Below, piece by piece: positions 1 through 39,735 of a stretch of DNA of 39,764 nt (the first letter of the stretch is position 1; the number at the start of each line of letters is the position of its first letter). This DNA is from a virus, in UHGV virus genome UHGV-0145637, one strand, 5' to 3'. A model generated the notes under the pieces. It made no database searches and had not been told where the DNA came from. It saw nothing but the letters and a program-made list of their open reading frames with translations. The translations under genes were made by a program, and so were the position numbers.

Positions 1-54
1 GGCATACGAGATCTAGTACGGTCGCGTGGGCTCGGAGATGTGTATAAGAGACAG
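1..54. other. Illumina Nextera index adapter plus Tn5 mosaic end (library artefact, not biological)
   Basis: Starts GGCATACGAGAT, then an 8-nt index-like block, then ...GGGCTCGG and AGATGTGTATAAGAGACAG (Tn5 mosaic end). Confidence 0.9.
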
Positions 55-101
55 GGTGAAATCACCTGTAAGATACTGAAATAAAACAGGTGATGTCTGG
101 A

Positions 102-185
102 TGAGCGCTTAAAGTCTATTTGATATCGATTGTGCAATAATTAATCGTTTATTCTAAAATCGGCAAAACTTTTGATACTGCGATC
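102..185. repeat. Left-end region with putative transposase-binding repeats (attL-like)
   Basis: TTTGATAT at 118-125 and TTTGATAC at 171-178 are the reverse complement of GTATCAAA motifs repeated three times at the right end. Confidence 0.45.
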
Positions 186-256
186 TCAACTTTTTAAAGC
201 GTTTAAAACTTCATTAAATCTATATGGCAACTAACATACGGGCCAGCCTCGCCAAA

Positions 257-4335: not shown

Positions 4336-4557
4336 ATGGCGGTATTTAATATTCCTGATATTTACGGACGCTTTTACTTGGTTAATTTCGATAACGTGAA
4401 GGTGATTTCACTGGCCGAAAATAAAGAATGTGGCGATTTACTTTTTGAATTTAATGACCGCACACGAATGGTGATATCTGCCGGACTTGATCGCGAAGGT
4501 GCGACAGAAGTTTACAGCGGAATATGCCGTTCTGTTGGTGCGAAACAAGTCAGCTAA
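4336..4557 (+). CDS. Small early protein, 74 aa, in the position of Mu kil
   Basis: ORF directly after B, AGGTG RBS; function assigned by position only. Confidence 0.4.
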   Translation: MAVFNIPDIYGRFYLVNFDNVKVISLAENKECGDLLFEFNDRTRMVISAGLDREGATEVYSGICRSVGAKQVS

Positions 4558-5107: not shown

Positions 5108-5376
5108 GTAAAGTCGTACGCATTATTTTCGAATACAAGGAAGATGTTATCTGCAAAAACTCTGATGGCAGCACGCACAGAGGGGTAAGTCTGGATATAC
5201 GTTCAACCGGAATAAAGAAGAAAGATAATGGACCCGCCATGATTTTTGGGGTGGTTATGCTGGCAGAAAGCAGAAACTTCGCAGAGTTTGTGGCAATGAA
5301 AGCCAGTGCATTCATGAAAGACAGAGGCATGGCTTCCGGGGTTATTAACGGTAATGAATTTAATCAACAGGGGTAA
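5104..5376 (+). CDS. Hypothetical early protein, paralogue 1
   Basis: Starts MSKVVRIIFEY; paralogous to the next gene (MSKVRVIFEF). Confidence 0.45.
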   Translation: MSKVVRIIFEYKEDVICKNSDGSTHRGVSLDIRSTGIKKKDNGPAMIFGVVMLAESRNFAEFVAMKASAFMKDRGMASGVINGNEFNQQG

Positions 5377-5380
5377 TTCC

Positions 5381-5674
5381 ATGAGCAAAGTACGCGTTAT
5401 TTTTGAATTTAATCATGTTTCGCATGACGAAAAGTTGGCAGGCAATGACTGTGTTGAAGTGCATGAAAAGATTGGAGTGGATGTGAAAACAGAACGTGAT
5501 ACGGATAACAGGCCGACGTCACTCTGTGACGTTTATGCAAGTATTCTCCAGTATCACAGTCCTGCAATTATTCAGTTTCTCTCAGCGGAATTTCAGGCAT
5601 CTGCACAGTCTTTTGGAGCGGATGCCATCATTAAACGCCACCGCGTGCATAAAGCATCAGGCACACTGCAATAA
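5381..5674 (+). CDS. Hypothetical early protein, paralogue 2
   Basis: Start taken at the internal MSKVRVIFEF, matching the N-terminus of the preceding paralogue. Confidence 0.45.
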   Translation: MSKVRVIFEFNHVSHDEKLAGNDCVEVHEKIGVDVKTERDTDNRPTSLCDVYASILQYHSPAIIQFLSAEFQASAQSFGADAIIKRHRVHKASGTLQ

Positions 5675-5685
5675 GGAAAAACAAA

Positions 5686-6216
5686 ATGGCTAAACGCGTT
5701 ACAAAATTAAAGGCCGCAGCCGAGGCGGCACCGCAGACCCGGGAAGAAGTCAGCCGTGATATCCGCACCCTGGGAGATATTCAGCGAGAGGCGCTGCGCC
5801 TGGAAACGGCGATGAATGACGAAGTGGCAGAAATCACCGCCCGTTATACGCCGCAGATTGAAAATCTTAAAAAGCAAATCAAAGTGCTTTTTAAAGGGAT
5901 TCAGGACTGGTGCAAAACCAACCGTGATGAGCTGACGAACGGCGGCAAAACCAAAACAGCCAATCTGACCACCGGAACGGTGTCATGGCGGCTGGGAACG
6001 CCATCATGCAGCGTCAGCCGTGATGTGGAAGGTGTGATTGAAATGCTGCGCCGTATGGGGCTTGAGCGTTTCATCCGCACGAAAGAGGAAGTGAACAAGG
6101 AAGCCGTCCTGGCGGAGCCGGATGCTGTGAAAGGCATTGCCGGTATCAAGGTGAATAAAGGCGCTGAAAGTTTTTATGTCGAGCCTTTTGAACAGGACGC
6201 CGGACTGAATAAATAA
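5686..6216 (+). CDS. gam: Gam-like host-nuclease inhibitor (DNA end-binding)
   Basis: 176 aa; conserved stretches RDELTNGGKTKTANLTTGTVSWR and LERFIRTKEEVNKEA match Mu Gam as recalled. Confidence 0.85.
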   Translation: MAKRVTKLKAAAEAAPQTREEVSRDIRTLGDIQREALRLETAMNDEVAEITARYTPQIENLKKQIKVLFKGIQDWCKTNRDELTNGGKTKTANLTTGTVSWRLGTPSCSVSRDVEGVIEMLRRMGLERFIRTKEEVNKEAVLAEPDAVKGIAGIKVNKGAESFYVEPFEQDAGLNK

Positions 6217-6361: not shown

Positions 6362-6895
6362 ATGATTGATGCAAAAGTGCTTGAAGGGGTTAAAAACTGG
6401 CTGTGTATTTATGGCCGCCTGACCTGCGGTGTACTGGCTGAAAAAATGAATATGCCGCCATCCTCCATGGTTTATTTTCTGCGTGATGCGGTTGATGCAG
6501 GCGTGCTGACGGAATGTAACGGTTTTTATGATATTCCGCGCCCCCGCCCGGTGCAGCCGGTTCGTCGCAAATGCAGCCAGGAATCTGCGGCTGATGATGT
6601 TCAGTGGTGCGGCTTCAGAAAATCCCTGCCATGGATTGAGGGGCATGATATTCCGTCGATGGCGTGGGAATTTGCTCAGGGCGTTCTGACCTGTGAAACC
6701 GTTTATGTGGTGGCTGAAGTTGATGAGCAGGCCATGAAAGAAGGCGTGCCCCAGTTTGTGATGGCGTATATCGACATACGCCTGGGCGTCATTATCTGCG
6801 GTTTAAGCGGCTGGAATATCACTGAACATGTTCTGCGCTACCTGATTGTTGACCGGACAGCAGCGCCTGCCGGGATATCTGCGGAGGTGGCGTAA
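6362..6895 (+). CDS. Hypothetical protein
   Basis: 177-aa ORF, co-directional; no motif recognised. Confidence 0.4.
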   Translation: MIDAKVLEGVKNWLCIYGRLTCGVLAEKMNMPPSSMVYFLRDAVDAGVLTECNGFYDIPRPRPVQPVRRKCSQESAADDVQWCGFRKSLPWIEGHDIPSMAWEFAQGVLTCETVYVVAEVDEQAMKEGVPQFVMAYIDIRLGVIICGLSGWNITEHVLRYLIVDRTAAPAGISAEVA

Positions 6896-7410
6896 TGTTC
6901 TTTAAAACATCAAACCCTTCCGCGCTGGCTGCGTGGCAAAAATACCAGCAGGACTGCCAGAAAGTTAAGGATGAGGCAAAACGCCTTGAGGCCGTGCTGA
7001 ATGTTGCGTGCCGGTCGGTATTTGTATCCGGTATCAGTGGATTTTACTTTAAGGGACTGCGTTTTACGGAGGACAAATATCCTTTTCATCGCGACTTATG
7101 GCGAAAACCGACTGCGTCGAATGGCTGGAGCTGCACACCGCGCACATCACGTATCCCTAAAACCCTGCGTGTTGCCTCTGATGAACTGAACAGTCTGTGG
7201 CGTGAATATTCGCCCGTCACGTATGCCAGAACCGATGCGCTGTTGTTCTGGTTGGGTATTGATTTCTCGGCAATCCTGTTTGGCCCTGTGAAGTGGTTCT
7301 GCGTTGACGATGTGATTTACCTTCAGTGCGGCGTAAAACCCGCAAAACAGAAAATGACCGAAATACTGTCTGATGAGTTTTATGCTGCTGAAAAGCGAGT
7401 CAGGGGGTGA
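6895..7410 (+). CDS. Hypothetical protein
   Basis: 171-aa ORF, start overlaps upstream stop. Confidence 0.4.
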   Translation: MFFKTSNPSALAAWQKYQQDCQKVKDEAKRLEAVLNVACRSVFVSGISGFYFKGLRFTEDKYPFHRDLWRKPTASNGWSCTPRTSRIPKTLRVASDELNSLWREYSPVTYARTDALLFWLGIDFSAILFGPVKWFCVDDVIYLQCGVKPAKQKMTEILSDEFYAAEKRVRG

Positions 7411-7413
7411 TGC

Positions 7414-7965
7414 ATGATGAAATTACAACCCATGGGACTAAAAGGTCGCGCCCCCGCTCATGTCCGTCCGTGGACACCTGAAGAAGATGCGCTGCTGATT
7501 GCGCTTTATTCATCCACCCCGGTTAAGGATATTGCTGCCAGAATAAAAAGAACTGTCTGGGCTGTATATAACCGGACTGGTGTATTGCGCAGTTCATACC
7601 CGGAGTTACTGAAATATAAACACCCAAGATTTACACCTGATGAAGATAAGTTTATTCGAAAAAATGCCAGAACAATGACCTGCCAGCAAATGGGAGAATA
7701 TCTCGGACGTAATAAAGATTCTGTCAGATGTCGGGCAGGAATGATTGGTGCTGGATTAACAAAGTGCGGAGAGTTACGCCCCGGCACGCACATATCTGAT
7801 GATGATGTACGTCTTATACGTGCGCTGCGTGATTCCGATTACCCACGCCGTCTGTCATTCCGGGAAATTGGCGAAAAGTTTGGAATATCTGAACATTCTG
7901 CTCACGCAGTTTATTACCGTCGCCGGACTGCCGAGGACGCTGTATTACGGGAGTTAACGCCATGA
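7414..7965 (+). CDS. Putative DNA-binding protein with two Myb/SANT-like repeats and a C-terminal HTH-like segment
   Basis: Repeats WTPEEDALLIALY...IAARIKRT and FTPDEDKFIRKNAR...LGRNKDSVRCR fit the Myb/SANT pattern. Confidence 0.45.
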   Translation: MMKLQPMGLKGRAPAHVRPWTPEEDALLIALYSSTPVKDIAARIKRTVWAVYNRTGVLRSSYPELLKYKHPRFTPDEDKFIRKNARTMTCQQMGEYLGRNKDSVRCRAGMIGAGLTKCGELRPGTHISDDDVRLIRALRDSDYPRRLSFREIGEKFGISEHSAHAVYYRRRTAEDAVLRELTP

Positions 7966-8291
7966 TAACGACCTTATTTGTTGAATCAGATGAACCTCTT
8001 GTGTGTGCCGCCGGAATGCCGCTCTGTGGCGGAACGCTGACCGGTGTTTATTTCGGGGATTTACGCGGTTATCCCTGGCATTCACTGAATGATGCTTTCC
8101 CACCTGATATGGAGGCTGCCGTGCTGATTGTTCAGTATGGTCACCGTCAGGAGCTGCGCATCGGCCATATGGGGTATGAAGGCTTTTTTGTTGATGAAGA
8201 AACCGGAGCCTGCCTTGAAGATGAAGACGGACAGGTGACGCACTGGTGTCATATTTCGGCTTTACCGGAATTACGGGAGGTGAATGCGTGA
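7962..8291 (+). CDS. Hypothetical protein
   Basis: 109-aa ORF, start overlaps upstream stop. Confidence 0.4.
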   Translation: MITTLFVESDEPLVCAAGMPLCGGTLTGVYFGDLRGYPWHSLNDAFPPDMEAAVLIVQYGHRQELRIGHMGYEGFFVDEETGACLEDEDGQVTHWCHISALPELREVNA

Positions 8292-8653: not shown

Positions 8654-8962
8654 ATGAGTATTGAATTAAGATCGTCTTATGAATATCGCAAAATCCTTAT
8701 CGCCGGAGGCATGAAACCGGAAGATGCAGAGAAATTCGTTTCTTTTATGGATAAAGAATGTGACAAGCGGGATATGCCAGAAATTATTATGGATGACATG
8801 ATTCTGGATTCAGCCGTGGCGTTAAGTCCGTTATGGATTGTGCATACTCTTGCGGAAATAGCTAAAAGAAGTGACAAGCAGGCGGCTGTCGCCGCCCTGC
8901 GATTACTGGCTGAATTAAGTTGTTCAGTCAATCCCAATACGTTCTTTGACGAACCTGGTTAA
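8654..8962 (+). CDS. Hypothetical protein
   Basis: 102-aa ORF; its 3' end overlaps the convergent antisense gene. Confidence 0.4.
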   Translation: MSIELRSSYEYRKILIAGGMKPEDAEKFVSFMDKECDKRDMPEIIMDDMILDSAVALSPLWIVHTLAEIAKRSDKQAAVAALRLLAELSCSVNPNTFFDEPG

Positions 8963-9334
8963 CATTGATTTGGTAACTTCTTTAATTAGATCAAATGGTG
9001 CGTCTGTAAACTCCTTTTTGATTCTTTCAAGGATTGGTTTTTTTCTCAGGGCGTTAGCTAAATCATGCCCCTGCTGGGTAAGCATAATGGGCGTGTTTCT
9101 GAAACCAACGCCCAGAGAATGGAAAAAGAAACCAATATATTTGGGTGTTTCTGACTGCATATCACCATTAACAATTGAGCCATTATCAGCGAGAAGCATA
9201 AGATGAAAAACTTTTTTATCCTTTTCCTCTCCTTCTGCCTCAGCCATGCCCAGATCCTGTAGTGTAAGGAAAGGTGTTTCAGCATCCTGAAAAGTTGTGA
9301 GAATACTTAATACTTCATCGTAATCTATTTTCAT
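8924..9334 (-). CDS. Hypothetical protein encoded antisense to the early operon (moron candidate)
   Basis: 136-aa ORF on the opposite strand, markedly AT-rich, acidic N-terminal half. Confidence 0.5.
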   Translation of the reverse strand: MKIDYDEVLSILTTFQDAETPFLTLQDLGMAEAEGEEKDKKVFHLMLLADNGSIVNGDMQSETPKYIGFFFHSLGVGFRNTPIMLTQQGHDLANALRKKPILERIKKEFTDAPFDLIKEVTKSMLTRFVKERIGID

Positions 9335-9919: not shown

Positions 9920-9946
9920 CCCGCCACAGCGCGGGATTTTTATTTT
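9920..9946 (+). terminator. Rho-independent terminator after gemA
   Basis: Stem CCCGC / GCGGG with 6-nt loop, followed by ATTTTTATTTT. Confidence 0.6.
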
Positions 9947-9981: not shown

Positions 9982-10404
9982 ATGGCTGAAACACAGATGA
10001 GCATGTTTGGTGACAGCGAACAGCTGCACGCGCTGATTGACCGTCTGGATGATATTCCTGATGATGAGCTGAAAAAGAACTGGCCCGGCACGCTGCGGGA
10101 CCTGGTTGATGTGATCAGTGCTGAACTGCACCGTCAGGGGATTGAACCTGCTCAGGCGGGAATGCTTGCCCGTAAGGTTGCAGCCGCACAGGCCGGGTAC
10201 ATGGGCGGGCGTGGTTATTATCTCCCGGTCGGTGAATCCCTTTTCACCGAACTGCGCAATAATGAAATTTTTTCCCGCTGGAGCCAGGGCGAAAAAATTG
10301 AAACCCTGCGCCGCCACTACCAGATGTCAGAGACGCAGATTTACTCCGTTATCCGCAACCAGCGTCGCCTGCATCAGGAACGCACGCAGCCACGGCTTTT
10401 CTGA
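9982..10404 (+). CDS. Mor/C-family transcription activator (middle/late)
   Basis: 140 aa; C-terminal HTH-like region (...ETLRRHYQMSETQIYSVIRNQRRL) resembles the Mor/C family as recalled; only one family member in the window. Confidence 0.7.
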   Translation: MAETQMSMFGDSEQLHALIDRLDDIPDDELKKNWPGTLRDLVDVISAELHRQGIEPAQAGMLARKVAAAQAGYMGGRGYYLPVGESLFTELRNNEIFSRWSQGEKIETLRRHYQMSETQIYSVIRNQRRLHQERTQPRLF

Positions 10405-33964: not shown

Positions 33965-34537
33965 ATGCTGATTGGGTATATCAGGGTGTCAACAAATGAC
34001 CAGAATACGGCGCTACAAAGAAATGCGCTGGAATGTGCAGGATGTGAGCTGTTTTTCGAAGACAGAATAAGCGGTAAGACAAGGGAGCGTCCCGGACTTA
34101 AACGCGCATTAAAGCGACTCCGGCCAGGGGATACCCTGCTGGTCTGGAAACTGGATCGCCTTGGACGCAGTATGCAGCACCTTGTCCTTTTAACAGAAGA
34201 ACTCCGGCAACGCGGCGTTAACTTCCGCAGCATTACGGACAATATTGATACATCCACTCCCATGGGACGTTTCTTTTTCCATATAATGGGCGCGCTGGCG
34301 GAAATGGAGCGGGAACTCATTATTGAACGTACACGCGCGGGTCTTGCTGCTGCCCGTGCTCAGGGGCGTCATGGCGGCAGACCTCAGAAACTGACAGAGA
34401 AAGAGCGGGAGCAAATCGCCCGTTTGCTGGCTAATGGCGAGTCCCGTAAACAAATCGCACTGATATTTGATATTGGCCTTTCCACCCTTTATCGTTATTT
34501 TCCTGCCTCACCAGCTCCGTCACCAAAAGTACCGTGA
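33965..34537 (+). CDS. gin: Serine recombinase DNA invertase (Gin/Hin/Cin/Pin family)
   Basis: MLIGYIRVSTNDQNTALQRNAL... with catalytic-serine motif and C-terminal HTH; near-colinear with Mu Gin as recalled. Confidence 0.9.
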   Translation: MLIGYIRVSTNDQNTALQRNALECAGCELFFEDRISGKTRERPGLKRALKRLRPGDTLLVWKLDRLGRSMQHLVLLTEELRQRGVNFRSITDNIDTSTPMGRFFFHIMGALAEMERELIIERTRAGLAAARAQGRHGGRPQKLTEKEREQIARLLANGESRKQIALIFDIGLSTLYRYFPASPAPSPKVP

Positions 34538-34622: not shown

Positions 34623-36677
34623 ATGTCAGACTCCAAGTGGAAAATGCTCTCCGCCATGCCCGGAGAGTTTTCAGTCAAGGTTGCCGGTGGCACGGTGGCA
34701 TTTATTGAAAGCCCTTTCCGCCCTTCGGGTAATAAAGGGGGGATCACCTTCGCAGACTGCGTGATCCGCTTCAGCACGAAAGAGCCATTATGGGTAATGC
34801 CGGTATCCGGTAATCCCAGTGCAGAAATCACCAGTTCAGGCGTGACTGGCATCATTCCAATCACATCTGACGTGGCCGGAACGCTCACGCCCTCCGACTG
34901 GAATGCACCGGATAACGCCGGGCCTTCCGGTAGCACGAATGGCAGCAGTTCAGAGCCGGAATATTACTTTGTTGTCATTCTCGCGGGTCAGTCAAATGGC
35001 ATGGCCTACGGCGAGGGGCTGCCGTTACCGGATTCGTTTGACCGCCCGGACCCACGCATTAAGCAACTGGCACGCCGCAGTACGGTAACGCCCAACGGTA
35101 CGTCGTGTACATACAACGACATCATTCCGGCAGACCACTGCCTGCATGATGTTCAGGATATGAGCGGGATAAACCACCCGAAAGCTGATCTGGCAAAAGG
35201 CCAGTACGGGACTGTCGGTCAGGGGTTGCATATTGCCAAAAAACTGCTTCCCTATATCCCACAGAATGCCGGGATACTTCTGGTGCCCTGTTGTCGTGGC
35301 GGGTCAGCATTCACCACTGGAGCCGACGGCTCATTCAGTGAGGCCAGCGGTGCTTCCGCTGATTCTTCACGCTGGGGGGCCGGTAAACCTCTGTATCAGG
35401 ACCTGGTAAGCCGCACCAAAGTCGCGCTGGCGAAAAACCCGAAAAACAAACTTCTGGCTGTGGTCTGGATGCAGGGAGAGGCAGACCTTGCCTCAGGAAG
35501 CCAGCAGCATAATAGTTTATTCACGGCCATGGTTCAGCAGTTCAGAACTGACCTGGCTCCGCTTGCTGCGCAGTGCGTGAGTGGAAATGCCACCACGGTG
35601 CCGTGGATTTGCGGTGATACCACGTATTACTGGAAAAACGCTGGCACCGATAAATATGAGGCAGTATACGGTGGCTACAAAGGCAAGGAAGCACAGAAAA
35701 TTTTCTTTGTACCGTTCCTGACGGATGAGAATGGACAGAGCACGCCAACGAATGCTCCGGCGGAAGACCCGGATATTGTGGCTGTCGGGTATTACGGTGC
35801 AGCATCCCGAACCCAGGGCAGTTTTGTTTCGACACAGCGTGACAGCCATTTCAGCTCATGGGCACGCAGGGGCGTCATTTCAGACCGTCTGGCCTCAGCT
35901 ATTATGCTCCATGCAGGGCGCACGGCTGAACTGATGCGCGGGCAGACCGTGACACCACCGGATGAGAAGCCGTCACCTGATACACCATCAAAACCGTCCA
36001 CGCCACCCGCAGACACCACGACGATGAGTACGCTATTTGCTTACCGGGCATCTGAGTCTGAAGGACGGTTGACACCACAGGGTTGGGCTGCCGGAGGTGG
36101 CAAGGCTCAAATCGTGGATGATGCCGGAGCCAGCGGGGGTAAGGCAATGAAACTGACCAAGGAAACAGGAAGAGCCCCCTGGTACCTTGAGCATGATGCT
36201 GGTAATGGTGCGGACCTGCTGGGTAAAGGTGGTCTTGTCAGTTGTCGTTTTAAACTCGATGGCGCGCTTACGGCTAATCAGTACGCACTGGCGCTGTACT
36301 GGCCGGTTTCTGCCCTGCCGCAAGGGGTTACTCTGGAAGGAAATGCCGGTCATAACCTGCTGGCATCGTTCTACGTACAGAGCGATGCCACAGACCTTAA
36401 CGTGATGTATCACAAAGGAAACACGGCGCAGAACACGAAGCTGGGGTCATTCGGCGCATTTAATAACGAATGGCATACGCTGGGCTTCCGTTTTGCCGGT
36501 AACAACAGTATTGAGGTGACACCGGTCATTGATGGTAAGGACGGGACACCATTCATGCTGTCGCAGTCTCCGGTCGGCACGTTTACGGCAGACAAGTTGC
36601 GCGTGACCGATATCACTAAAAATGCGACTTACCCGGTACTGATTGACAGTATCGTGGTGGAAGTGAATAACGCGTAA
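34623..36677 (+). CDS. SGNH-type (sialate-O-acetylesterase-like) esterase domain protein with Pro/Thr linker and C-terminal beta-rich domain
   Basis: Motifs VILAGQSNGMAYGEG and VVWMQGEAD; linker PPDEKPSPDTPSKPSTPPADTTT; about 210-aa C-terminal domain; no N-terminal signal peptide. Confidence 0.5.
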   Translation: MSDSKWKMLSAMPGEFSVKVAGGTVAFIESPFRPSGNKGGITFADCVIRFSTKEPLWVMPVSGNPSAEITSSGVTGIIPITSDVAGTLTPSDWNAPDNAGPSGSTNGSSSEPEYYFVVILAGQSNGMAYGEGLPLPDSFDRPDPRIKQLARRSTVTPNGTSCTYNDIIPADHCLHDVQDMSGINHPKADLAKGQYGTVGQGLHIAKKLLPYIPQNAGILLVPCCRGGSAFTTGADGSFSEASGASADSSRWGAGKPLYQDLVSRTKVALAKNPKNKLLAVVWMQGEADLASGSQQHNSLFTAMVQQFRTDLAPLAAQCVSGNATTVPWICGDTTYYWKNAGTDKYEAVYGGYKGKEAQKIFFVPFLTDENGQSTPTNAPAEDPDIVAVGYYGAASRTQGSFVSTQRDSHFSSWARRGVISDRLASAIMLHAGRTAELMRGQTVTPPDEKPSPDTPSKPSTPPADTTTMSTLFAYRASESEGRLTPQGWAAGGGKAQIVDDAGASGGKAMKLTKETGRAPWYLEHDAGNGADLLGKGGLVSCRFKLDGALTANQYALALYWPVSALPQGVTLEGNAGHNLLASFYVQSDATDLNVMYHKGNTAQNTKLGSFGAFNNEWHTLGFRFAGNNSIEVTPVIDGKDGTPFMLSQSPVGTFTADKLRVTDITKNATYPVLIDSIVVEVNNA

Positions 36678-38903: not shown

Positions 38904-38944
38904 ACGCTTAAAAACTCATTCTAAAACTCAAAAGAAAAGCGCCG

Positions 38945-39036
38945 ATTTAGTATCAAATAAGTTGCGTATCGGCGTTTTTCAGCGGTATCAAATGAAATGC
39001 AAATCGGTATCAAAAAAATCGCCGCGCTATAATACA
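38945..39036. repeat. Right-end region with three GTATCAAA repeats (attR-like) and putative terminus ...TAATACA
   Basis: GTATCAAA at 38950, 38985 and 39007; reverse complement of the terminus begins TGTATTATAGCG. Confidence 0.5.
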
Positions 39037-39735
39037 TGCGCTTGCTTGCGCACTCCAGCGCCAGCTGTTTGATGTCGTAGTTCGGATCGCCTTTTTTATG
39101 GTTCAGACCATCGCGAATCGCAAACACCAGTTTCGGGAACACCGCAGTTTTACGGTTTTTACCGAGGCCTGCGATACGGTTACGCAGGATAGATTCCTGA
39201 ATCAGGCGCGACTCCCAGCTGGTGCCCAGACCAAAACCAAAGGTTACAAACGGCGTCTGACCGTTGGCGGTGTGCAGGGTGTTTACTTCGTACTCCAGCG
39301 ACTGGAAGGCATCGTAGCACTCTTTAATGGTACGAGAGTTAGCGTAGCCTTCGGCGTCCGGGATGTTCCACTCTTCTGCGGTCTTGCGATGTTTGTTGTA
39401 GCTGGCGGTAACAAACGGCGCCAGCACTTCATCGATACGGTTAATGGTGGTGCCGCCATAAATATGGCTGGCGACCTGAGCAATAATCTGCGCAGTTACC
39501 GCGGTTGCCGTAGAGATCGACTTCGGCGGTTCAATCTCGGCGTTCCCCATCTTAAAGCCCTGGGTCAGCATGCCTTTCAGGTCGATCAACATGCAGTTGA
39601 ACATCGGGAAGAACGGCGAGTAATCGAGATCGTGATAGTGAATATCGCCACGCTCATGTGCCTGCACCACGTCACGCGGCAGCAGGTGCTGACGTGCATA
39701 GTGTTTAGCCACGATCCCGGCCAGCAGGTCGCGCT
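39037..39735 (-). CDS. nrdD: Host anaerobic ribonucleoside-triphosphate reductase, 5'-partial and interrupted at the phage junction
   Basis: Minus-strand translation AKHYARQHLLPRDVVQAHERGDIHYHDLDYSPFFPMFNCMLIDLKG... resembles enterobacterial NrdD as recalled; the frame runs out of the contig and degenerates on entering phage DNA after ...ECASKRMY. Confidence 0.6.

Follow-up and report, generated by a model that had tools for sequence, protein, structure and literature searches.

We propose that the gene at positions 7414 to 7965 on the plus strand of a 39,764-nucleotide viral DNA (UHGV virus genome UHGV-0145637; the whole of this stretch is the window below) probably encodes a D5-family protein whose three tandem Myb/GcrA-type helix-turn-helix (HTH) modules bind DNA as an accessory factor of lytic growth. 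The 183-amino-acid (aa) product is an ordinary phage protein that had been annotated before and falls within a large, named family of DNA-binding proteins, and its role is one that we infer; the reality of the gene, the fold, the repeat structure, the family membership, the operon position, and the distribution were established in this analysis.

The list of open reading frames (ORFs), together with the sequence itself, revealed an intact 183-codon ORF at 7414 to 7965 on the plus strand that begins with ATG and ends with TGA (7963 to 7965), and the computed product is a basic protein of 21 kDa (pI 9.9, net charge +12). The assignment as a coding sequence rests on the ORF, a match to PHROG 323, an identical RefSeq protein, and purifying selection; the RefSeq entry, WP_000977057.1, carries the PGAP name "SANT/Myb-like DNA-binding domain-containing protein". 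On reading the sequence, a Shine-Dalgarno-like AGGGGG (7402 to 7407, plus strand) was found 6 nt 5′ of the ATG, and the stop codon of the upstream ORF (7408 to 7410) ends 3 nt ahead of the ATG. That upstream neighbor (6895 to 7410, plus strand; PHROG 2314) is a homolog of Mu gp12 with 55% identity and adjoins the gene in all the Mu-like prophages, and the start of the downstream neighbor (7962 to 8291, plus strand; PHROG 6925) overlaps the stop of the gene in an ATGA at 7962 to 7965. This overlap indicated that the 183-codon ORF sits within a tightly packed plus-strand operon. From the gene to the hairpin that follows GemA, terminator-like sites on the plus strand are weak matches only.

The sequence of the window corresponds to an entire Mu-like transposable prophage of E. 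coli. Its left part contains a minus-strand repressor-like gene, a gene for a Ner-like HTH protein, MuA, MuB, small ORFs, and Gam; after Gam there is a homolog of Mu gp11 (68% identity), then the gp12 homolog, and then the gene at 7414 to 7965. On the 3′ side of the gene lie three small ORFs, a minus-strand DUF2513 ORF, GemA, one Mor/C-family activator, and lysozyme, and the right end carries a Gin-like invertase, Com, and Mom. The single Mor/C-family gene shares more with Mu C (40% identity) than with Mor (28%), and a terminator-like hairpin (9920 to 9935) separates GemA from this C-like gene, which spans 9982 to 10404. The gene is thereby placed in the counterpart of the "semi-essential early region" of Mu, and the order Gam, gp11, gp12, gene, and GemA bears out the description of its product, in an earlier note made from the sequence alone, as a phage early-region protein. 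A search of the PADLOC-DB defense models returned no family at E ≤ 0.01 for the 183-aa protein or for six neighbors.

The gene is present in 200 of 5426 complete E. coli genomes. Among 62 loci on viral contigs, the Mu-like ones all have the order gp11-gp12-gene, and a second group, with 35 to 46% identity, resides in P2-like prophages, where the homolog belongs to the early operon, with the C/Cox switch to one side of it and replication gene A to the other; as a rule, an ead/Ea22-like gene precedes it. The gene is an early-operon cassette common to two unrelated temperate phage types of enterobacteria. Phage Mu has no homolog at the slot adjacent to gp12; gp13, which occupies the slot, is an unrelated Cys-rich peptide of 60 aa, and the idea that it represents a remnant of the gene was dropped for this reason. 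As Mu lacks the gene in the gp12-adjacent slot, the function is probably accessory rather than core to Mu-type development.

Two motifs, W20-T-P-E-E-D25 and F73-T-P-D-E-D78, are spaced 53 residues apart in the 183-aa protein, and each is followed by an HTH with conserved arginines (R46, R54, and R59 in the first, R99 and R107 in the second), while a third segment runs I127-S-D-D-D-V ... LSFREIGEKFGIS ... YYRR. The parts of the protein were delimited on two alignments, A2, which contains 28 full-length orthologs and is the base of the segment profiles, and A1, which contains 16 sequences and was the input for AlphaFold2; all coordinates given here are on the plus strand. An N-terminal basic arm (aa 1 to 18, net charge +4; 7414 to 7467) was recognized from A1 and A2, its charge, and its pLDDT of 45 to 63; it carries the family-conserved motif M-x-L-x-P-M-G-x-P-G-x-C-P-A-H-V-R and is predicted to be disordered. 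Module R1 (aa 19 to 60, from P-W20-TPEED; 7468 to 7593) was defined by the AlphaFold2 model, a partial Pfam Myb match, and an alignment with c-Myb R2; its predicted helices span residues 22 to 31, 37 to 44, and 48 to 59, the third being encoded by nt 7555 to 7590. Module R2 (aa 72 to 112, from R-F73-TPDED; 7627 to 7749), defined by AlphaFold2, hhalign, and alignments with c-Myb R3, T5 D5, and Mu gp9, has predicted helices at 75 to 84, 90 to 97, and 101 to 110 (third helix, nt 7714 to 7743) and contains the family-typical motif L-G-R-x-x-x-S-V-x-x-R-A. Module R3 (aa 127 to 170; 7792 to 7923) is a more diverged HTH, supported by AlphaFold2, subthreshold Pfam HTH matches, and hhalign, with predicted helices at 129 to 140, 149 to 156, and 160 to 169 (third helix, nt 7891 to 7920). 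Conservation within the family peaks in helices 1 and 2 of R3 (LIRxLRD ... LTFREIGEKF), at 0.73 to 0.74 versus 0.39 in helix 3 of that module. The third helices of R1 and R2 each have a net charge of +2. The protein ends in an acidic helix and tail (aa 171 to 183; 7924 to 7962), identified from A1 and A2 and from a helix at 173 to 181 in the AlphaFold2 model; its motif R-T-A-x-D-A-x-x-R-E-L-L-P is conserved in both alignments, and it may serve in capping or in contacts with a protein.

AlphaFold2, run on A1, yielded three consecutive three-helix bundles with a mean pLDDT of 82.6 and about 90 in the helices, so that the check for a three-helix fold suggested in the earlier note came out positive; the pTM of 0.50 means that the model predicts neither the relative arrangement of the modules nor the geometry of any DNA wrapping. 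The same note had given a repeat similarity limited to the TPEED string as grounds for refuting its reading. Such a limit held for the single sequence, as pairwise BLAST and Smith-Waterman comparisons among the three segments found nothing shared beyond that string: the single-sequence Smith-Waterman score of R1 against R2 had a z value of 3 and was reached in 16 of 1000 shuffles, and the R1-R3 and R2-R3 similarities were not significant in this comparison. It did not hold for the family profiles, in which whole modules align, since hhalign gave 98.9% for R1-R2 (E = 2 × 10−17, 42 columns), 93.8% for R2-R3 (E = 1.8 × 10−7, 39 columns), and 86.7% for R1-R3, the last being restricted to the HTH. 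Profile similarity across whole modules, combined with the predicted bundles, indicated that the repeats are real, far beyond chance.

When all PDB sequences were searched with the A2 profile, c-Myb was matched at E = 1.6 × 10−8, where a single continuous alignment pairs R1-R2 with Myb R2-R3, and B-Myb and v-Myb were matched at 1.5 × 10−7 and 2.8 × 10−7, respectively. These matches indicated that "Myb-like" denotes a statistically supported homology that extends beyond the motif and, together with the bundles and the hhalign results, they sustain the claim of two tandem Myb/SANT-like repeats followed by a third HTH module. A single-sequence search of the PDB sequences gave nothing significant, and a full-length Foldseek search of the PDB was nonsignificant (best E, 0.065). 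Bundles of about 50 residues with three helices, arranged in tandem, are what characterizes Myb/SANT proteins, and the 183-aa protein has them. Pfam Myb (PF00249) scored 20.7 bits, below its gathering cutoff of 24.4, and aligned aa 19 to 33 alone; some orthologs reach the cutoff (P0034 with 32.4 bits and P0024 with 24.4 bits), and across the 28 orthologs (E ≤ 10−3 for Myb) HTH_23 was matched in 14, Sigma70_r4_2 in 12, and Myb in 11. Of the signature Trp positions, the first alone is aromatic and conserved (W20, which is invariant, and F73), and in the profile alignment the positions of the second and third Trp of c-Myb correspond to aliphatic or small residues. Given the Pfam score below the cutoff, the retention of one Trp of three, and generic HTH families that match as often, the repeats are best described from their sequences as Myb-like and not as canonical Myb. 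Thus, whereas the eukaryotic Myb R2R3 proteins (c-Myb and B-Myb; PF00249/PF13921) have three spaced Trp residues, the 183-aa protein keeps the first; its helix 2-3 region resembles a bacterial HTH (eIAxxLGRtxxaVxxR), and it possesses an additional, sigma-r4-like third module.

In Pfam, this third module has a likeness to sigma-70 region 4, to HTH_38, and to AsnC-type HTHs, each match lying within aa 124 to 165 and below threshold. GcrA of Caulobacter crescentus (PDB 5yiu) differs in combining one such domain with a sigma-70-binding C-terminal domain, and the Pfam GcrA model (PF07750) gave no match to the 183-aa protein, which places it outside the GcrA family; the T5 protein A1 has been noted as having a GcrA-like N-domain. 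Cbp1, the CRISPR DNA repeat-binding protein of Sulfolobus (PDB 2lvs), is likewise a small, stand-alone, prokaryotic protein of tandem HTH modules, and it was matched by the profile at E = 3 × 10−6 across two modules and by Foldseek with a probability of 0.93. It differs in being archaeal, in being represented by a 105-residue construct, and in its biological context, so that the likeness applies at the module level only. Cbp1 is monomeric and reads a long DNA site with three modules. It provides a precedent for one polypeptide built of tandem HTH modules. An NCBIfam search gave no usable match.

A word-indexed search retrieved 21 close homologs, in E. coli and Salmonella, and when 1.84 billion cluster representatives were searched exhaustively with a profile, 9764 matches at E ≤ 10−3 were obtained. 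Many among the best 150 of these 9764 are tandem arrays with 4 to 9 matched stretches of a unit of about 50 residues, for which the four arrays that were read gave the consensus WTxEEDxxLxxNYxxxSxxEIAxxLGRSxxAVxxRAxxLGI; one array is fused to a helicase, and the arrays whose origin was looked up are on metagenome contigs in five of five cases, two of them bearing prokaryote-type names. A fold search of viral models returned 21 matches at E ≤ 10−3, among them three proteins of the jumbo phage Goslar, one of which is named "Myb-like domain-containing protein", together with an "AsnC family protein" of phage C130_2 and several endonucleases with such modules, and a "D5 protein" of a Vibrio phage fell just outside the cutoff (E = 5.3 × 10−3). 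The opinion that Myb-like repeats are uncommon in phages must be abandoned in view of the RefSeq name, PHROG 323 with T5 D5, Mu gp9, the Goslar proteins, and the profile matches.

Assignment to the D5 family rests on PHROG 323, "transcriptional regulator, D5-like", which was matched at E = 1.3 × 10−52 (180 bits; aa 2 to 182 on profile positions 80 to 256 of 319) and which scored a P2-like homolog at 2.8 × 10−33 and T5 D5 at 1.2 × 10−71. With hhalign, A2 matched T5 D5 (T5.118, YP_006946.1) at 97.4% (E = 1.3 × 10−11) over 162 columns, aligning aa 17 to 183 to D5 residues 71 to 252 across all three modules, with about 25% identity. Both proteins are made early, and in D5, as in the 183-aa protein, R1 begins with P-W-T-P-E and R2 with F-T-P-D-E-(E in D5). 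D5, however, is 255 aa long with an extra N-terminal part of about 70 residues, which the 183-aa protein lacks, and comes from a virulent phage, whereas the gene of the 183-aa protein lies in the early, dispensable region of a transposable phage that is temperate, and the protein has a conserved N-arm and C-tail of its own. According to the T5 record, D5 binds DNA, is needed for DNA replication and late transcription, and takes part in the shutoff of expression. In view of the extra 70 or so N-terminal residues of D5, these functions may not transfer to the 183-aa protein. The classic reference for D5 is the J Virol report of McCorquodale et al. from 1979. The helicase T5.108, annotated as SANT/Myb in InterPro, was considered as a further relative and rejected, showing no similarity by hhalign.

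Mu gp9 (E8, Mup09), which the Mu record also names "transcriptional regulator, D5-like", was matched by hhalign at 98.3% (E = 1.4 × 10−14) and aligns to R2 and R3 (aa 65 to 167). With its 99 aa, it is limited to two modules, against three in the 183-aa protein, and is devoid of the N-arm and C-tail. Like the 183-aa protein, it is a product of the semi-essential early region in a phage of the Mu type, but its gene is upstream of gam, whereas the gene of the 183-aa protein follows gp12; the ORF at 5354 to 5674, in the slot just upstream of gam in the window, has no detectable similarity to gp9. In the literature, no paper was found on the 183-aa protein, on Mu gp9, or on Myb-like proteins in Mu-like phages and prophages; the content of the Sp18/Mu-like papers does not concern the gene at 7414 to 7965, and a DRT4/ORF55 paper taken up as a lead proved irrelevant, ORF55 being PriA-NTD-like.

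Mu-like phages whose flanking genes are 91 to 98% identical carry one of two alleles of the gene, whose products are about 99% or about 71% identical to that of the window, P0004 being an example of the latter. With dN/dS values of 0.06 within an allele and 0.25 between alleles, the gene is under purifying selection. Synonymous divergence amounts to 0.56 to 0.70 in the gene versus 0.07 to 0.34 in the flanking genes tested, and dS is 3 to 5 times higher in the gene than in the flanks. The raised dS and the overall dN/dS of 0.25 rule out rapid positive selection of the whole gene and point to old alleles moved by recombination instead of an adaptive burst. Differences between the alleles are concentrated in the three presumed recognition helices, which is the modest new point of this analysis: 18 of 53 amino acid differences fall within the 32 residues of the third helices (Fisher P = 4 × 10−4), where dN/dS is 0.52 to 0.95, compared with 0.06 to 0.14 in helices 1 and 2 and 0.21 to 0.27 elsewhere. 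Family-wide, conservation is also low in the third helices, which rank with the most variable parts, R2 and R3 being the clear cases. Such divergence fits either diverging DNA preference or weak constraint, dN/dS not exceeding 1. The allele of the gene is partially associated with that of the C-like gene, which was judged to be ordinary linkage.

On the preferred reading, one small basic polypeptide would lie along duplex DNA, with its three-helix modules joined by short linkers and the third helix of each module placed in the major groove, and the arginines R46, R54, R59, R99, R107, and R170, which are invariant in the alignment, would anchor the DNA backbone. Possible contacts of the N-arm (PMGxPGxCPAHVR) and the C-terminal helix are the minor groove and a partner protein. 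The gene would be transcribed with the early (lytic) operon of the Mu-like prophage, and occupancy of DNA by its product would modulate transcription and/or replication in lytic growth as a dispensable accessory function. We consider it highly likely that the 183-aa protein binds DNA and regard the chances of sequence-selective and of nonspecific binding as evenly balanced; a role in the early-to-late transition or in host shutoff is suggested tentatively, as something rather doubtful. The proposal of the earlier note, an accessory regulator or an anti-host DNA-binding factor, is plausible.

An alternative is a sequence-specific regulator with allele-specific targets, in which each of the three recognition helices would read a few base pairs, so that a monomer would recognize a long asymmetric site on the host chromosome or the phage genome. 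Two alleles amid nearly identical flanks, the concentration of their differences and the elevated dN/dS in the third helices, the invariance of the arginine anchors despite this divergence, and the requirement for D5 in late transcription given in the T5 record are all in keeping with such a protein, but dN/dS stays below 1, the pattern is accounted for equally well by relaxed constraint and by diversifying selection, and the same family occurs in P2-like phages, whose late-gene switch differs; we consider this regulator somewhat unlikely. One version of it makes the protein an activator of the single C-like late regulator in a Mor-less phage, as might be suggested by a sole Mor/C gene that is nearer to C and split from GemA by the hairpin. 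Against a replacement of Mor, Mu has both Mor and the D5-like gp9, so that the D5-like gene does not track the absence of Mor, and a single Mor/C activator could run the two-tier cascade through read-through or its own promoter. The boldest form, in which the third helices are a fast-evolving specificity cassette on a conserved scaffold, carried by recombining alleles of a Myb-type Mor replacement that activates the C-like regulator or serves as its timing switch, is very unlikely. T5 D5 is said to coat duplex DNA nonspecifically and cooperatively. If the 183-aa protein did the same, coating DNA stoichiometrically, it would shut down host or early transcription or organize replicating or transposing DNA; homology to D5 across all three modules, the strong positive charge, third helices as weakly conserved as would be expected if base-specific contacts were unimportant, and the spread of the family over Mu-like, P2-like, T5-like, and jumbo phages with no common regulatory DNA agree with this. 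We nevertheless think it unlikely, given that the N-terminal 70 or so residues of D5, a possible carrier of cooperativity, are missing, that the gene lies in the middle of an operon with no sign of very high expression, and that the strong conservation of the N-arm and C-tail points to specific partners.

Two further readings follow database names and weak matches. Many homologs (P0002, P0004, P0006, and others) are called "AsnC family protein", and a Pfam HTH_AsnC-type model matches aa 130 to 164 in part (E = 0.0012), as would befit a transcriptional regulator of the AsnC/Lrp family. That match, however, reaches 19.1 bits against a cutoff of 27 and covers the HTH only, Myb, GcrA, and D5 match better, and the model is all-helical, with three bundles that fill the length and no beta strands; a C-terminal alpha/beta RAM domain was not detected, and its absence refutes the family assignment, leaving this reading scarcely credible. 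The protein might also be a detached DNA-targeting module, either the remnant of a homing/HNH endonuclease arm or the targeting subunit for the product of a neighboring gene. R1-R2 weakly matches PHROG 1891, "HNH endonuclease" (E = 0.008; 6.6 × 10−6 for a P2-like homolog), and PHROG 6156, "endonuclease"; tblastn matches lie in or beside HNH endonuclease and DNA methylase genes of cluster-J mycobacteriophages, the viral fold matches include endonucleases of BcepSauron, ME3, and a Flavobacterium phage, and the gene is found in unrelated phage backbones. Yet there is no nuclease or methylase domain in the 183-aa protein or its immediate neighbors, these neighbors differ between Mu-like and P2-like phages, so that a conserved partner gene is lacking, and purifying selection and a 183-aa architecture that stays fixed over more than 60% divergence argue for an autonomous function, which renders a detached module highly improbable.

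The discovery value of the gene itself is little, as the exact protein is already labeled SANT/Myb-like in RefSeq and lies within a large, named phage family, and the name "AsnC family protein", frequent among its homologs, is wrong. The analysis links Mu gp9/E8 and a widespread prophage protein of E. coli and Salmonella to T5 D5, the only family member with a recorded phenotype that turned up, and this provides a concrete hypothesis for one part of the semi-essential early region of Mu. The allele differences in the third helices offer a small natural experiment on the DNA preference of tandem Myb-like modules.

The 99-aa gp9/E8 protein of phage Mu (positions 5482 to 5781 of locus L066) was found to be a relative of the D5-like protein with two modules, one of the R2 type and one of the R3 type. 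While the Mu gene sits upstream of gam, the D5-like gene lies instead after gp12, and the ORF occupying the slot immediately upstream of gam in the window (5354 to 5674) showed no detectable similarity to Mu gp9. Relatives were found on metagenome contigs, where five large proteins (P0022, P0025, P0027, P0031, and P0079) consist nearly entirely of about 5 to 9 tandem copies of one and the same unit of about 50 residues, with the pattern WTxEED...LGRS...R, and one of the five carries an N-terminal ResIII/Helicase_C helicase.

Downstream of the D5-like gene, a single Mor/C-family activator gene was identified in the window (9982 to 10404, plus strand), and its product is nearer to Mu C (40% identity, E value of 9e-33) than to Mor (28%); no Mor orthologue was found across the whole window. 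Between GemA and this gene lies a hairpin resembling a terminator (9920 to 9945), in which CCCGCCACAGCGCGGG precedes a run of T residues, with about 45 nt remaining up to the ATG of the gene. The gene could possibly be turned on by read-through or by some early activator. Directly after MuB, a small plus-strand ORF (4438 to 4551) weakly matched the C-terminal portion of the Mor protein of Mu, at 38% over 39 aa with an E value of 0.01; this ORF may encode a small HTH protein, or the resemblance may be due to chance.

A DUF2513-like ORF of 136 aa (8924 to 9334; PHROG 585, with a Pfam match below threshold) lies on the minus strand within the early operon, at the approximate position of the minus-strand gp15 of Mu, and was present in only some of the related loci. 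Toward the right end of the window, a 684-aa cargo gene annotated solely as DUF6645 (34623 to 36677, plus strand) is flanked by a Gin-like invertase (33965 to 34537) on one side and the com/mom module on the other.

A 100% identical copy of the D5-like gene is present on the E. coli JMF1 chromosome (L001), in a deleted prophage. There, an IS903B transposase gene (L001 11151 to 12074) follows the early region and directly abuts a tail gene (compared with window positions ~8.5 to 32 kb), and thus most of the structural genes of the window are absent. Comparison of the prophage ends (window 1 to 256 and 38921 to 39712, minus strand; L001 1 to 2594 and 19047 to 20066) revealed that in JMF1 the prophage is bordered by two truncated genes, rhsD at one end and the Rhs-associated DUF6531 gene at the opposite end, and hence that the Mu-like phage inserted into an rhs element.

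Comparison of the D5-like gene (7414 to 7965) with loci L022 to L042 revealed two old alleles, at ~99% and ~71% protein identity. Since dS between the alleles is 0.56 to 0.70, versus 0.07 to 0.34 for the flanking genes of the carrier phages, these sequence data indicate cassette-like recombination restricted to this gene.
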